Below, piece after piece: positions 3,783 through 39,114 of a DNA stretch of 64,000 nucleotides. Origin of the DNA: Escherichia coli (lineage in GTDB: Bacteria > Pseudomonadota > Gammaproteobacteria > Enterobacterales > Enterobacteriaceae); assembly GCF_024700885.2 (NCBI RefSeq), contig NZ_CP117014.1; one strand, written 5' to 3'. Numbering within the stretch: the first letter of the stretch is position 1; every line of letters begins with the position of its first letter. Position numbers and translations under genes: made by a program. The notes below the pieces were generated by a model. It was not told the DNA's origin, did no database searches, and was given only the letters and a program-made list of their open reading frames with translations.

Positions 3783-3796
3783 TTAGTTTTCTAACA
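3783..3796 (-). promoter_or_regulatory. operator-like 14-mer, copy 3
   Basis: Minus strand reads TGTTAGAAAACTAA; faces a weaker half CGTTAGAACATTGA at 3767-3780; 43 bp upstream of the ORF at 3839. Confidence 0.5.
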
Positions 3797-12782: not shown

Positions 12783-13004
12783 ATGCAATCCATTAACTTC
12801 CGTACCGCGCGCGGCAACCTTTCTGAAGTGCTCAACAATGTTGAAGCCGGGGAAGAGGTTGAAATCACCCGCAGAGGCCGTGAGCCAGCAGTAATTGTCA
12901 GCAAGGCTACTTTTGAAGCCTACAAAAAAGCGGCGCTGGATGCCGAATTTGCATCCCTGTTTGACACCCTGGACTCCACCAACAAGGAACTGGTTAACCG
13001 ATAA
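12783..13004 (+). CDS. phd: Phd antitoxin
   Basis: [49 protein letters not shown]... matches P1 Phd (73 aa) as I remember it; start trimmed from ORF 12777. Confidence 0.95.
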
Positions 13005-13384
13005 TGAGGCATATATCACCGGAAGAACTTATTGCGCTTCATGATGCGAATATAAGCCGCTACGGCGGCCTGCCGGGAATGTCAGATCCGGGTAGGGCAG
13101 AGGCCATTATCGGGAGAGTTCAGGCCAGAGTTGCCTACGAAGAGATCACCGACCTTTTCGAAGTCTCCGCCACCTACCTGGTGGCTACGGCGAGAGGGCA
13201 TATATTCAATGATGCCAATAAGCGTACCGCGCTAAACAGTGCGCTGCTATTTCTACGCCGTAACGGTATACAGGTATATGATGATCCCGTGCTGGTGGAG
13301 CTTGCAGTGGGGGCTGCAACTGGTGAAATCCCCGTATCTTCAGTAGCGAAAAAACTACGTGAACTATATGGTTCCAATATTTGA
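13004..13384 (+). CDS. doc: Doc toxin (Fic-fold kinase)
   Basis: 126 aa; [11 protein letters not shown] Fic-like motif; ATGA-coupled to phd as in P1. Confidence 0.95.
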
Positions 13385-13386
13385 AA

Positions 13387-13414
13387 AGAAGCCCGCTCAA
13401 CCAGGCGGGCTTCT
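13387..13414. terminator. bidirectional stem-loop terminator
   Basis: AGAAGCCCGC-tcaaccag-GCGGGCTTCT between convergent doc and the 364-aa gene. Confidence 0.6.
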
Positions 13415-13419
13415 TACTA

Positions 13420-14514
13420 TCACTCAATGATTTTTTCTGCTGTCAGCCAGCTAATTTCTTGCCTGTCTTTCGGCGGTTTTAGCATGTGGGCGTATTCAGC
13501 GACATTCTCCCACGGAATTGTTTTTGCCCACTCAACGATAGCATTGTGATCTGCAGTGAAGAGTGGAATGGTGTGCGATTTCAACCATTCTAATGTCGTG
13601 ACGCCATGTTTTTTGGCGTGGTGCTGCGCATGATGCCGGGCTATCACTCGTAATGGTATTGTCCATTCACTACCATCAGGCATCGAAAAGCGCATTGTCT
13701 TCGGCATATCTGATTCAAGAACAGCCTCCCTAATACCAGGGAACTCACCAAGAATCATACGACGATAGTCATCACTATTTCGCCCGCCATACCTTTCGGC
13801 AAAATGATCAAGATATTCTTGGGTAATAAATGGTGAATCCTCCGCACTCAGCTTAATGGCTTTATATACACCACTCGGATTATCTTCAGCTAAAGCACGT
13901 CCATGATGTGAATCATAAAAAAAGCCTATTTCCTCTGGTGACGGAATTGAAGTGAGCAATATGCGTGAATCACCACTAGTCATGCTTGCCCACACAATGC
14001 TGTATGCCCGATCGCTGATATGTGCGGAATCCACAATAATGAATAAAAGATGGTCGGCGTAGTGACCTGCAATGCTATCTTCATAGTTAAGGCGGAAGTT
14101 ACAAAAGCACATTCCCCAAAATTCATTGAACATCAGACCGCTATCACCGACCTTAAAATACTCAATGATAAAAGGTTGTTTTTTCAGCAATGCCTCCCAA
14201 CATTGCCACACATATGCAACAATTCCTCTTTTGCAAACATTTGATTTTGGATAAACAATTACTGTCCGGGAATCAGGATACATAATCGTATAAAGGGTAC
14301 TAATAACAGCAAGCACTTGCGGTCGTCCGATCCCATACGGAGTGGTGACAGTAGCTTTTGCATTATTGGGCTGTATAGCTTCAACAATTTGTTGTTGCTG
14401 GTGGCTTAAATCAATATCAAACAATTCTTTTGCTGCCAGTACCCAATTGTCTTTATATTTCTCCACCAGCGACAGCCAGCGCGGATCTTTATAAATATTG
14501 CTCTTAGTCGCCAT
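13420..14514 (-). CDS. PacB-like terminase ATPase-domain paralog with degenerate Walker motifs
   Basis: Start set to MATKSNIYKDPRW (overlaps the upstream stop: ATGGCGACTAA). Aligns by eye to PacB residues ~10-265 (DPRW, SHQQQQI, YFYDSHH, SPF.T, YGGR). Walker A GHGTGKS becomes PYGIGRP and Walker B LDEAS becomes VDSAH. The C-terminal ~100 aa is unrelated to the PacB nuclease half. Confidence 0.6.
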   Translation of the reverse strand: MATKSNIYKDPRWLSLVEKYKDNWVLAAKELFDIDLSHQQQQIVEAIQPNNAKATVTTPYGIGRPQVLAVISTLYTIMYPDSRTVIVYPKSNVCKRGIVAYVWQCWEALLKKQPFIIEYFKVGDSGLMFNEFWGMCFCNFRLNYEDSIAGHYADHLLFIIVDSAHISDRAYSIVWASMTSGDSRILLTSIPSPEEIGFFYDSHHGRALAEDNPSGVYKAIKLSAEDSPFITQEYLDHFAERYGGRNSDDYRRMILGEFPGIREAVLESDMPKTMRFSMPDGSEWTIPLRVIARHHAQHHAKKHGVTTLEWLKSHTIPLFTADHNAIVEWAKTIPWENVAEYAHMLKPPKDRQEISWLTAEKIIE

Positions 14515-15271
14515 CTGCCACTTCCTTAACTTCTTCTTTGGCCTGTTCTGCAATCGCCGCACGGCATTTCGCCCTGGCTGTAGCGATTGCTTCAGCTCGC
14601 ACATCGTCTGGAATCGTTGACGTGATATACATATCCAGTTCTTCGGCACGGAATACTGTTTGGTCCAGATATTCGCGTAGCATCCAGGTAAATTCGAAAT
14701 CACACGCGATAATCTCTGCGCTACCTTCTGCACCATTTGGGAAATGAATAAATGCCTGTTTAGCCAAACCGATAACACGACATGCGGTTGCCAAAACAGC
14801 GACAACTAGGTTTACATTTTCACACGCTACGGGCTGGTTAACGCCGGAGATTACTCCATTTAACTGTCGGTTATATGGAAGGTAGTTTGAGATGCGTTCT
14901 ACGCGCCATGTGCCAGTCAGGCTGCCATTTTTAAATATAATTGGTGTAACGGATAGCCCAAGCTCGCGTATAAGTCGTTGCGCTATAGCAGGATCATTAA
15001 ACAGGTCTAATGCTACACATTCGAAAGACTGCGCAAGGGCAAACAGTTCTTCCAGAGAGTAGTCTTTGCCCCTGGCGGTGATGTAACGACGAACGCCGCT
15101 GTCTGCATCACTCCATATAGCTACGCCATGCTCTTCATTCAGCTCTTCATTAAAGCCGAGATACGTCATGATAGTGCGTTCAATCGTGTCAAACGGCAGT
15201 GACATGTCGGCGTTAACAGCCACCAGCAGGCCATTACGCAAGCGGTATTGAATTGTTTTAGTGCTTTCCAT
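14504..15271 (-). CDS. hypothetical protein coupled to the PacB paralog
   Basis: 255-aa ORF; no motif recognised; its stop overlaps the start of the downstream gene. Confidence 0.5.
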   Translation of the reverse strand: MESTKTIQYRLRNGLLVAVNADMSLPFDTIERTIMTYLGFNEELNEEHGVAIWSDADSGVRRYITARGKDYSLEELFALAQSFECVALDLFNDPAIAQRLIRELGLSVTPIIFKNGSLTGTWRVERISNYLPYNRQLNGVISGVNQPVACENVNLVVAVLATACRVIGLAKQAFIHFPNGAEGSAEIIACDFEFTWMLREYLDQTVFRAEELDMYITSTIPDDVRAEAIATARAKCRAAIAEQAKEEVKEVADGD

Positions 15272-15277
15272 GTCAAA

Positions 15278-15718
15278 TCACTCCACAACAAACCAGTCAC
15301 AGGCCAGCAGGTCGCCAACTGAAGGCACCCACGGAACAACTACACCTTGTGCATTTTTTAAGGCGAAATAAGCACCATACGGAACGAGGTCGCCGGGGAA
15401 ATATCCCTTAATGGCTTCCATTCGTGCCGGGTACTGTCCTTCAGGAACCAGCCAGCAGAATTGGTTTTCGCCGTTCCACCCGCGTCGAGCAACTTTCTTG
15501 CCTTCCTTCAGCCACATCAGCGCGTCTGAAAAGTCGGCTGCTTCAAGGTCGATTTCTTCTTGCTGGGTGGTGATGCCACCAGCAGAAATAGTTACGCTCC
15601 CGGTAAGATTAATCATCACGCCGTTGTCATCCGTAATGATGACCGTGGTTCCATTTTTTTTGTGAGCTTTGTATTTGGGACGGAACTTAAAAAGCTCTTT
15701 CGTTGCCATGTTATTCAT
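15278..15718 (-). CDS. DUF2829 (Tad2-like) domain protein
   Basis: C-terminal 85 aa FSDALMWLKEGKKVARRGWNG...VPWVPSVGDLLACDWFVVE fits the DUF2829 signature (A..LK.GKKV.R.GW ... D.LA.DW.V) from memory; extra ~60-aa N-terminus. Confidence 0.65.
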   Translation of the reverse strand: MNNMATKELFKFRPKYKAHKKNGTTVIITDDNGVMINLTGSVTISAGGITTQQEEIDLEAADFSDALMWLKEGKKVARRGWNGENQFCWLVPEGQYPARMEAIKGYFPGDLVPYGAYFALKNAQGVVVPWVPSVGDLLACDWFVVE

Positions 15719-15732
15719 AGTCTTTTCTCTGC

Positions 15733-16227
15733 TTATAACTTTTCGTACTGAAGCGGTGAACGCTTAATTTCAAAGTGGCCTTCCGATGTGCTACCAAAGC
15801 CACCAGCACCACGCTCCGTTTCGTTGAGTTCCTCAACCTCGACTAGTGAGACTTGTTCAACACGCTCAAAAATTCCTTGCATGACAGCCATTCCAGGCTT
15901 GAGACAAACGCCTTCCCCGCCGGGATCAGTAATCAGTTTTGCCATGATTTCGCCGCGATAATCGGAGTCGATAATTCCTACGCAGTTAGCCAGGCGAGTA
16001 TGTTTTTTGCAGCCCAATCCTGATCGCGGATAGAGTTTCAGACACCAGCCGGGCGGGATCTCCATAGCCAGTCCGGTATACACCCACCAGCTTGAGGAAA
16101 TTGCACCATTGCTATCGACGCATGGTTTTATTTCAACAGCCTCAAAATCCATCGCCGCCGATCCGGAGGTGGCATAAGCTGGAAGTTTTGCTGCCGGATG
16201 TAGGCGTTTCACTTTTACGTAAATCAT
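15733..16227 (-). CDS. dut: dUTPase
   Basis: 164 aa; GIIDSDYRGEI and RGAGGFGSTS trimeric dUTPase motifs. Confidence 0.8.
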   Translation of the reverse strand: MIYVKVKRLHPAAKLPAYATSGSAAMDFEAVEIKPCVDSNGAISSSWWVYTGLAMEIPPGWCLKLYPRSGLGCKKHTRLANCVGIIDSDYRGEIMAKLITDPGGEGVCLKPGMAVMQGIFERVEQVSLVEVEELNETERGAGGFGSTSEGHFEIKRSPLQYEKL

Positions 16228-16706
16228 TGTTTTTTAGCTCTCTGCGTGAAGGTGTAAACCCGACGTTTGATATGTGGAACGGTAGGAACAGGAAGACAGG
16301 AACTTTCAATAACTCCTTGCTCATCCAGCGATCGCACCGCCCGCAAGAACTGCGACGTGTCGCCGCCAAACTGGCGGGCATAGGTGCTGCCGTTATGAAG
16401 TATTTGAGCTATTACCCGAGTTTTTGTCTGGCTGTCACGATATGCGAATAGCCGCACGGCCTCTTCTGGCGCAATCGCTAACTGATAGCCTTTCCCGGCA
16501 CGGTGTCGAATGAATCCATGCGCCAGTAGGTTTTTGAGTTCGTTACGAGTGCGAACAGATCCGTAACCCAGGAAGTGTGGATTGATAACGACTGGCTTAA
16601 ACCATTCCGTAGGTGCTTTAGCTAATAGAGCTAACAGCTTCCCGGATAATTCTGGATAGGAAGACGGGTAACAATTCAGAGATGGGTAATAAGTTTTCAC
16701 CGACAC
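16224..16706 (-). CDS. hypothetical protein with two winged-helix-like segments
   Basis: 160 aa; NELKNLLAHGFIRHRAGKGYQL and FLRAVRSLDEQGVIES. Confidence 0.45.
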   Translation of the reverse strand: MSVKTYYPSLNCYPSSYPELSGKLLALLAKAPTEWFKPVVINPHFLGYGSVRTRNELKNLLAHGFIRHRAGKGYQLAIAPEEAVRLFAYRDSQTKTRVIAQILHNGSTYARQFGGDTSQFLRAVRSLDEQGVIESSCLPVPTVPHIKRRVYTFTQRAKKQ

Positions 16707-17041
16707 CCCCTTGCAGGATATCGACCGGCATTAGTATCCGGTGCAATAAAGCCGGTAGTGGGGCGAGTGAAAGCGAGATTAATCTTCTCGACCATAGTGC
16801 GATAATTTTCCTGATAGTGGGCCAGGAGTTTTTCGGCGGCAATGATGGTTACTTTCCGGACGTAGCTTTCTGCTTCCTCCAGATTTCGCCAGTTTTTTTC
16901 GAGGGTAAACACAGGGACGGCCTCAAGCCCGGTCATGATGCCGAACACAACGACAGCATGACTGTTCTTAACACCAGCGGCGAAGGTTACGGTGTAACCA
17001 TCCACCTTGAAGCGTCTTGATTCCGTGATTTGACTCTGCAA
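16697..17041 (-). CDS. hypothetical protein, first gene of the operon downstream of dre
   Basis: 114-aa ORF overlapping the next gene by 10 nt; operator copy 4 lies upstream. Confidence 0.4.
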   Translation of the reverse strand: MQSQITESRRFKVDGYTVTFAAGVKNSHAVVVFGIMTGLEAVPVFTLEKNWRNLEEAESYVRKVTIIAAEKLLAHYQENYRTMVEKINLAFTRPTTGFIAPDTNAGRYPARGCR

Positions 17042-17099
17042 AGCACCCTCCTAAATAGGCGAGGGTACTTTACAGCAAAGGCGTTAATCTAAAAAGATG

Positions 17100-17113
17100 T
17101 GTTAGAAATTTAA
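17100..17113 (+). promoter_or_regulatory. operator-like 14-mer, copy 4
   Basis: TGTTAGAAATTTAA between the dre stop (17115) and the 114-aa gene start (17041). Confidence 0.5.
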
Positions 17114-17114
17114 T

Positions 17115-18143
17115 TTACGAATCCATCAGGCGGCTATTAGCCCCCACAGACACGCCGCCACGGCGAAGATACCGCATAAGTGTTTCCGGTTTCTTCCAGG
17201 TTCCTTCCTGCATGATCTCCACCATAGACACCTGCTTTTCAGCCATATCAATAGCGGCCCCGACGCGTGCACTATGCCCGGTCCACGTCCGGTATCTTCC
17301 TTTGTTTGGCGTAGCATCTCTTTTATTCAGCAACACCCAGGCGTCGCTGAATATTTTCTCCATTGCAGGTGCAGTAAGGGGCGTTGTCGTGATCCTGGCC
17401 TTATTGCTACGGTGTATCGGCGGGAACAGCACTGCGTCAGGATGTTCGCGAAGCCCGGAAACATCCAGCCAGTCATTCAGCACAGCGGTAGTGCGACGGG
17501 AAAGCACCTTATCAAGCCCGGCGGCGGTCGTTATTGTCTTCGTGTGTGAAATATGTAGCGTGACAGTGTCACCTGTTTGATCCAGATCTCCTACACGAAT
17601 ACGCGAGATTTCCGACATACGCATCAGCGTATTGTATGCAACAAAGAGAAAAGCCCGGTTGCGCAGGTCCACCAGCCGTTCTGACCTGGACAACAGGACG
17701 TCGAGCAGTTTCAGATCGTCCCACCGAAGCGGTATAGCCTGGCCTGTTCGTTCGCCTTTTTCAGTTGCCGCTTCGCGCCGGATGCGCCGCATAGCCAGAG
17801 AAACACTTTTATCATCCGAAAGTGGCGGAAGGCCACAATGCGAAAGCAGCATATTCAGCATGGCGTAGTGCTTATCAATGGTGGTCGAAGCCAGATCGGC
17901 ATCATGCAGCTGAAGAAAATACTCGCGGGCCATTTCTGGTGAGATCGGAAACCAGGCAAGCTGGCGAGCGTGACACCAGCGCGCCCATGAATGAAACACC
18001 AACCGGAGGTCGCGCAGAGTATTCGGCGCATAAGCCCCCTGGTCATTCATGAACCGCATAAAGTTTTCTGCAGCCTCCTGGTACTCTTTGCCAATGTTGC
18101 GCAGAAAACCACCGGAGCTGCCAGAGATAATTAATTCACTCAT
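17115..18143 (-). CDS. dre: Dre tyrosine recombinase (Cre homolog of phage D6)
   Basis: 342 aa; aligns along its length to P1 Cre (WFP..PE....Y, VSL.MRRIR.E, AYNTL.R..EI.RIRV.D, GHSARVGAA.DMA); begins MSELIISGSSGGFLRN as I recall for Dre; cognate rox site 150 bp upstream. Confidence 0.9.
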   Translation of the reverse strand: MSELIISGSSGGFLRNIGKEYQEAAENFMRFMNDQGAYAPNTLRDLRLVFHSWARWCHARQLAWFPISPEMAREYFLQLHDADLASTTIDKHYAMLNMLLSHCGLPPLSDDKSVSLAMRRIRREAATEKGERTGQAIPLRWDDLKLLDVLLSRSERLVDLRNRAFLFVAYNTLMRMSEISRIRVGDLDQTGDTVTLHISHTKTITTAAGLDKVLSRRTTAVLNDWLDVSGLREHPDAVLFPPIHRSNKARITTTPLTAPAMEKIFSDAWVLLNKRDATPNKGRYRTWTGHSARVGAAIDMAEKQVSMVEIMQEGTWKKPETLMRYLRRGGVSVGANSRLMDS

Positions 18144-18295
18144 GAAACTATTTAACCTCTATATACAGATAACGCTACGCGAAAAATATAAAAATGACAG
18201 GGTAGCTATAAGTTAATTTTCAAGATTCAAGCCTTTGATTCGAGGCGCGTATTTTCAGTGATGTCAATACTGATCATCTACCCATAATTATAGCC

Positions 18296-22942: not shown

Positions 22943-22956
22943 TATTAGAAAATTAA
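22943..22956 (+). promoter_or_regulatory. operator-like 14-mer, copy 7 (variant)
   Basis: TATTAGAAAATTAA, about 80 bp upstream of the lpa-position gene. Confidence 0.4.
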
Positions 22957-39100: not shown

Positions 39101-39114
39101 TTAATTTTCTAACA
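39101..39114 (-). promoter_or_regulatory. operator-like 14-mer, copy 12
   Basis: Minus strand reads TGTTAGAAAATTAA; faces the weak half TTTTAGAAACAGCA. Confidence 0.5.

Follow-up and report, generated by a model that had tools for sequence, protein, structure and literature searches.

Gene content and boundaries of the operon

The stretch of Escherichia coli DNA analysed here (contig NZ_CP117014.1; 64,000 nucleotides (nt) in full, hereafter the window) carries six minus-strand open reading frames (ORFs) at positions 13420-17041, which form a single co-directional operon behind an operator-like site. Over positions 13000-18200 the window shares 99.6% identity with E. coli plasmid p702_18_3 (NZ_CP074704.1) and, across the 77% of that interval which phage D6 covers, 97.2% identity with D6. 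The gene upstream of the operon, and outside it, encodes the Cre-type tyrosine recombinase Dre (17115-18143, minus strand; annotated dre in AY753669 and in D6), and c1, pacB, pacA and lpa are further neighbours (names following AY753669 and MF356679). Because of this near-identity and these neighbours, we assign the window to a D6-type phage-plasmid, a class of element common in E. coli, Shigella and Salmonella.

The first gene, g1 (16697-17041), encodes a 114-amino-acid (aa) protein (D6 orf117/orf2, phrog_1968) from a TTG start five bases past an AGGAGG, and this start and its ribosome-binding site are kept in four diverged lineages. Searches of Pfam, NCBIfam and the PDB gave no match for g1. 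Apart from phrog_1968 it belongs to no family, and its cluster representatives number only 12 among 1.8 billion. The product of g2 (16224-16700; D6 orf116/orf3, phrog_6669) is 158 aa long, or 160 aa when the upstream GTG at 16706 is taken as the start. It contains the winged-helix H1-H2-H3-wing topology twice in tandem and probably binds DNA. The third gene, dut (15733-16227), encodes a 164-aa trimeric-type dUTP diphosphatase, identified by PF00692 (E = 1.7e-14) and by the NCBIfam equivalog NF001862 (121.5 bits against a cut-off of 103). All five motifs (I-V) are present when it is aligned with the solved dUTPases 8y1q and 3mbq, and a short C-terminal tail is the sole difference detected from bacterial and phage trimeric dUTPases such as 8y1q and the E. 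coli enzyme (1dud).

The remaining genes are g4 (15278-15718), for a 146-aa protein whose residues 58-146 form a Tad2-family domain (DUF2829, PF11195); g5 (14504-15271), for a 255-aa IsaA homologue with an acidic C-terminal tail (phrog_2326); and g6 (13420-14514), for a 364-aa protein that joins a degenerate paralogue of the PacB ATPase domain to a C-terminal domain of ~100 aa. The g5 protein is 48% identical to P1 IsaA, and its confident predicted model (predicted local distance difference test score 84) resembles only an uncharacterised phage protein from B. cereus. IsaA proteins carry a variable, strongly acidic C-terminal tail (for example EEPSDEAVADVEAEVAEDADA), and that of the window (14504-14560) is shorter where g6 overlaps it. 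Sequence searches of the PDB with g1, g2, g5 and g6 returned nothing below E = 0.4, and dut gave the only NCBIfam match among the operon proteins. The family and structure assignments bear out all six gene identities that had been proposed in a first-pass annotation made from the DNA letters, and the ORFs lie at the coordinates given there.

That annotation also described the six genes as tightly overlapping. They are indeed tightly packed, but only three of the five junctions overlap: g1/g2 by GTGA, g2/dut by ATGA and g5/g6 by 11 nt, while gaps of 14 nt and 6 nt part dut from g4 and g4 from g5. At its far end the operon converges on phd-doc, as had been noted earlier. An intrinsic terminator (AAGAAGCCCGC/GCGGGCTTCTT with a T-run; 13383-13415, minus strand) separates the stop codon of g6 from that of doc (13384). 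Its hairpin (13386-13415; -20 kcal/mol, z = -2.9) begins 4 nt past the end of the operon, abuts the doc stop and is common to doc. A terminator scan found no second convincing terminator inside the operon on its own strand.

Conserved and accessory genes

In the first-pass annotation the operon was seen as the content of a variable accessory slot. To place it among its relatives we compared it with 72,556 plasmids by megablast. The g1-g2-dut block matched 127 records (125 at near full length), and dre matched 115. The order lpa-pacA-pacB-c1-recombinase-g1-g2-dut-(Tad2)-IsaA is also kept in relatives with ~50% protein identity (Klebsiella; a 90-kb element). From these record counts and the kept gene order it follows that g1-g2-dut and, essentially, IsaA are conserved with core synteny, which does not support a cargo slot. 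Phage D6 itself (MF356679, orf117-orf113; orf2, orf3 and dut in AY753669) has five of the genes, ordered as here on the distal side of dre, with 97% nucleotide identity and an identical operator site. It differs in lacking g6, in whose place pdcA lies on the opposite strand.

Variation is clear for g6 and partial for the Tad2-like gene. Near-full copies of g6 occur in 33 records, and a few more carry a divergent allele; L010 and L011 have the other allele. In ~50 D6-like plasmids without g6, only the final 37 nt of its coding region plus the stop (13420-13456) are kept, identical and adjoining the terminator. The region over g6 (13500-14500) also differs in G+C content (0.40-0.45, against 0.47-0.51 in the rest of the operon). 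Plasmid pEc-050-T0_3 has a 220-aa Tad2 and no g6, and pK91 has no Tad2. The operon of L012 lacks Tad2, and L012:1-396, just upstream of lpa, holds a Tad2-like gene. In a 99.5%-identical plasmid (NZ_OY754373.1), an IS21-family element (ISEc62 istA/istB) sits inside the interval that matches window positions 13000-18200.

These data bear on the proposal that the recombinase-distal slot is a variable hotspot and the six genes an exchangeable cargo for anti-defence or inter-phage competition. The P1 lineage (c8, ref, mat, res, mod) does fill the slot differently from the D6 lineage, g6 comes and goes among near-identical plasmids, Tad2 can be absent (pK91), relocated (L012) or fused (L013), and Tad2 is a genuine anti-defence family. 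Set against this, the g1-g2-dut block occurs in ~125 plasmids, no fewer than match dre, and its synteny reaches other genera. We saw no mobile-element boundaries at the operon, and its base composition is that of its flanks except over g6. Of the six genes, only Tad2 has evidence for anti-defence. None of the six proteins matched a defence model in PADLOC, and a literature search for dUTPase as an anti-defence factor returned nothing relevant. We therefore regard exchangeable cargo as a quite improbable account of the locus. Five of the genes are a conserved feature of the lineage, and only g6 and, in part, Tad2 behave as accessory genes.

The operator-like site and its promoter

The operator-like site TTAAATTTCTAACA (17100-17113, minus strand) begins 2 nt past the dre stop codon. 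With up to two mismatches allowed, the motif occurs 11 times in the window against 0.58 copies expected (~19-fold), and none of 100 shuffled sequences reached 11. All 11 copies are intergenic. The copy at 17100-17113 had been listed in the first-pass annotation as the fourth operator copy; it is real, and it is the fourth in window order. Among the other copies, one precedes the lpa homologue (PF25716) by 79-92 nt, one precedes a Ref homologue (PF16786) by 65-78 nt, and one is 15-28 nt away from where c1 starts. The P1 counterparts of these three genes are under C1 control through Olpa, Oc1 and Oref, and the window homologues carry the D6 motif instead. The motif is thus a repeated, asymmetric operator-like element at the promoters of homologues of the C1 regulon.

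Conservation of the site in relatives points in the same direction. The window, D6, pEc-050-T0_3 and the ~80%-identical Salmonella Typhi plasmid pK91 share a 16-nt sequence, ATTAAATTTCTAACAC, without any change, while the adjacent bases drift. The core TCTAACA keeps a constant distance to the g1 TTG start in four diverged lineages, including the distant relatives L012 and L013, in both of which it also lies upstream of lpa and beside c1. Between the operator and g1 we propose a weak sigma-70 promoter (TTTTAG, a 16-nt spacer and TAAAGT; 17067-17094, minus strand) that a consensus scan did not call. Its -10-like element, TGTAAAGTAC, is conserved in pK91 and L012. Four of the operator copies (931-944, 3783-3796, 22943-22956 and 39101-39114) have an inverted GTTAGA/TTAGA half-site ~10-15 nt upstream, which makes them similar to the bivalent (palindromic) type of C1 operator in P1; that at 17100-17113 is monovalent. 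A P1-type late promoter (AAGTGAYTT, N4, TANNNT) was also considered: the window holds 10 matches against 9.9 expected, with none at g1, and a late-promoter reading of AAGTACCCT-CGCC-TATTTA was dropped.

A site so close to the dre stop codon could instead block or delimit transcription that reads through from dre, or could serve another regulator, with the operon expressed at a low level together with dre in the lysogen. The position of the site, the lack of a terminator between dre and g1 in the window and the lack of a called consensus promoter all speak for this. The arrangement in L012 speaks against it. There a terminator follows the recombinase gene, then comes the same operator, and then TTGCGT-N16-TAAATT, with a better -35. 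Since the terminator parts the recombinase gene from the operator, the site goes with the g1 promoter. The distance from operator to -10 is moreover the same, 27 nt, in the window and in L012, and the same motif recurs at the lpa, c1 and ref homologues. We thus consider a roadblock or an unrelated regulator very unlikely.

Our favoured reading, which we hold to be probable, is that the locus is a lineage-conserved early operon of D6-type phage-plasmids, distal to dre and controlled by a C1-type repressor. In the lysogen, the D6-type C1 probably binds 17100-17113 upstream of the weak promoter and would silence the operon. Upon infection or induction, derepression would yield one early message ending at the terminator hairpin (13386-13415). 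The predicted dUTPase activity would then sanitise the deoxynucleotide pool and keep uracil from replicating phage DNA during lytic growth, while the Tad2-family protein may act as a sponge that sequesters the ADP-ribose-derived alarm molecules of Toll/interleukin-1 receptor (TIR) proteins (Thoeris). The tandem winged-helix protein g2 would act on DNA, g1 and IsaA are lineage-specific products, and about a quarter of the elements would also make g6, a putative non-catalytic mimic of the terminase ATPase domain.

Our confidence that the operon and its operator are real is high. We have moderate confidence in C1 repression, by analogy with P1, and likewise in Tad2 sponging; our confidence in any role for the other products is low. 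Several observations weigh against parts of this reading. The P1 operator consensus ATTGCTCTAATAAATTT has no match in the window at up to three mismatches, which is why the D6-type motif was derived de novo; its absence fits a repressor of other specificity, and the motif is assigned to the D6 C1 by position and analogy. A promoter scan called no consensus sigma-70 site in the interval from the operator to g1, and the -35 that we propose is a poor one. The operator sits ahead of this -35, off the core promoter; repression is plausible and no more. No terminator lies between dre and g1 in the window, and read-through from dre is possible. Four of the six proteins come without functional evidence, and the adenine-side pocket of g4 differs from those of SPO1 Tad2 and ModTad2, with a ligand that the sequence does not reveal.

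Tad2, the PacB paralogue and comparison with known systems

The call of g4 as a DUF2829/Tad2-like protein is well founded. PF11195 scores 81.6 bits against a gathering cut-off of 25 (E = 5.9e-23), and solved Tad2 structures are the best PDB matches: ModTad2 (9eib, E = 8e-21), 8v3e, HgmTad2/AcrIIA7 and SPO1 Tad2. About 46% of the positions aligned with ModTad2 are identical. The ligand contacts of SPO1 Tad2 are W25, N26, W73, D79 and, through water, S76 (10.1101/2023.05.01.538930), and these are conserved in g4 as W81, N82, W130, D136 and S133. The peripheral, adenine-side residues T65, D67, H71 and T78 are replaced in g4 by N, Q, V and G. Tad2 has been reported in phage-plasmids of the D6-like (93%) and P1-like (56%) kinds (2025 preprint, 10.1101/2025.09.12.675607), and ModTad2 and an enterobacterial relative sequester the histidine-ADP-ribose (His-ADPR) of type II Thoeris (10.1101/2024.01.03.573942).

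The Tad2-like alleles vary in length: 146 aa in the window (15278-15718), 220 aa (L005:3356-4018), 233 aa (L010:3401-4102) and 281 aa (L004:6048-6893). An N-terminal domain of ~75 aa is missing from the window and D6 alleles, and the L010 allele has another loop after strand beta-2, where HgmTad2 and ModTad2 form a second ligand pocket. In Klebsiella michiganensis (ABHTOV040000057.1, L013:7434-8348), a single 304-aa ORF in the dut/g4 position encodes both a dUTPase (residues 47-148) and a Tad2-like domain (227-302).

One could suppose instead that the operon serves early replication and nucleotide housekeeping with no dedicated counter-defence, Dut being the key enzyme and the DUF2829 protein and IsaA acting in DNA metabolism. 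On this account the universal retention of dut with intact motifs, the dUTPase-Tad2 fusion that ties the domain to nucleotide metabolism, the Tad2-like/IsaA pair that follows ssb in P1-like phages and the complete absence of Tad2 from some elements would all make sense. However, all DUF2829 proteins characterised to date bind immune signalling nucleotides (10.1101/2023.05.01.538930, 10.1101/2024.01.03.573942), g4 keeps the core residues that contact the ligand, and the Tad2-like/IsaA pair of SJ46 lies beside dar/ddr anti-restriction genes. We think pure housekeeping unlikely, and prefer an early operon that includes a putative Tad2 sponge.

The g6 protein is 37% identical to the PacB of its own element over 258 aa (residues 10-264; E = 6e-57) and 33% identical to P1 PacB over the ATPase domain; P1 PacB and the window PacB are 56% identical to each other. 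Its Walker A reads GIGRP (GIGQK and GIGHK in other alleles) against GTGKS in PacB, and its Walker B reads IVDS (VTEA and VMDA) against LDEA. The RNase H-like nuclease domain has no equivalent, PacB beyond residue ~265 finding no significant counterpart in g6. The first-pass description of a dead PacB paralogue is thereby upheld. The ~100-aa C-terminal domain, either unrelated to the PacB nuclease or degenerate from it, is near-identical across alleles. Between alleles, synonymous divergence (dS) is ~1.4 (saturated) in the N domain and ~0.1 in the C domain, a contrast that indicates a recombinant mosaic. The family as a whole comprises seven clusters among 5.8 billion proteins.

With its Walker motifs ruined differently in each allele, its nuclease domain absent and the gene missing from most relatives, g6 might be taken for a decaying, functionless pacB pseudogene. 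Yet the three alleles, 63-66% identical, all keep intact frames of 364-366 aa, and the ratio of non-synonymous to synonymous divergence (dN/dS) between them ranges over 0.27-0.46 for the N domain and 0.08-0.25 for the C domain. The non-catalytic PacB motifs FYDSHH, NPxG, YGG and LGEFP are retained, and the g6 start overlaps the IsaA stop by 11 nt, as expected for translational coupling. The dN/dS values and the intact alleles lead us to reject decay, to which we give next to no probability, and to regard g6 as a maintained gene under purifying selection.

What g6 and the divergent Tad2 pocket might each do can be put forward as conjecture. The E. coli-adapted Tad2, with a pocket periphery unlike those of SPO1 Tad2 and ModTad2 and with a dUTPase-fused form in Klebsiella, might catch a TIR signal that known Tad2 proteins miss, such as the N7-cyclic ADP-ribose (N7-cADPR) of type IV Thoeris. 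Early-expressed g6 might blunt host terminase sensors (Avs1-3, Upx) or act as a poison on the packaging motor of a P1-type rival resident in the same cell. We would give this joint proposal only a small chance of being right. Type IV Thoeris, with its N7-cADPR signal, was described from E. coli. It is not blocked by known Tad2 proteins (10.1101/2024.10.24.620036).

Part of this picture is not new: annotations exist for D6 orf113-117 and dut, and the presence of Tad2 in D6 and P1 phage-plasmids has been described (10.1101/2025.09.12.675607). As far as could be checked, in a literature search that left out the D6 and P1 genome papers, the conserved operator-promoter, the cross-genus synteny, the dead PacB paralogue with its allelic pattern, the Dut-Tad2 fusion and the origin of P1 IsaA described below are new. 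A conserved repressor-gated operon tells annotators which genes to expect beside dre, and its promoter-operator offers a defined site for work on D6 immunity. Further leads are the enterobacterial Tad2 allele series, the natural dUTPase-Tad2 fusion and a dead terminase paralogue that is perhaps relevant to terminase-sensing immunity. None of them overturns current understanding, and g6 is the most promising.

The candidate sponge shares with ModTad2 (9eib), SPO1 Tad2 (8sme) and HgmTad2/AcrIIA7 (8kbi) the DUF2829 fold domain and the Trp/Asn/Trp/Ser/Asp contacts. It differs from them in a 57-aa N-terminal extension ahead of the Tad2 domain, which other alleles have in a longer form and which in Klebsiella is joined to dUTPase, and its ligand is predicted only. 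The closest parallel to g6 is T4 vs.8, likewise a stand-alone phage paralogue of the large-terminase ATPase domain only (PMC13601566). Whereas vs.8 keeps Walker A and B and activates EcAvs2 (Avs2) via an intact ATP site (PMC13601566), g6 has lost both motifs and has an additional conserved C-terminal domain.

For the operon as a whole, the C1-controlled early units of P1 provide the nearest model. The first-pass annotation placed cra downstream of cre in P1, which is wrong, as cra lies upstream. The shared position of the slot does hold, for c8, ref, mat and res/mod lie downstream of cre and the C1-controlled ref and mat are among them. Oref-ref and Omat-mat at that position, and Ossb-ssb-isaA, each combine a monovalent operator at a weak sigma-70 promoter with accessory early genes, and at P1 Olpa the operator lies just upstream of the -35 and touches it, a geometry like that at 17100-17113. 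The D6-type operon thus resembles these units in its IsaA homologue and in its place relative to a Cre-type recombinase, and differs in operator sequence and gene content. Its Ref homologue (PF16786, a RecA-dependent nuclease of 192 aa) is encoded at 288-866 on the minus strand, far from dre, and operator copies occupy 278-291 and 931-944. In the D6 lineage ref has thus stayed under this motif, at a locus other than that in P1.

The P1-like phage SJ46 strengthens the parallel. Between ssb and isaA, beside hxr and the ddr/dar anti-restriction genes, it encodes a protein of 281 aa whose Tad2 domain shows 86% identity. Residues 1 to ~59 of P1 IsaA (L009:2070-3032) match the N-terminus of this Tad2-like protein (J46_0048, L004:6048-6893), and the remainder is IsaA. 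This match suggests that an in-frame deletion removed the Tad2 domain from laboratory P1 and, it seems, fused the two genes. Tad2-IsaA is a two-gene module found in the repressor-controlled early units of both the D6 and the P1 lineages.

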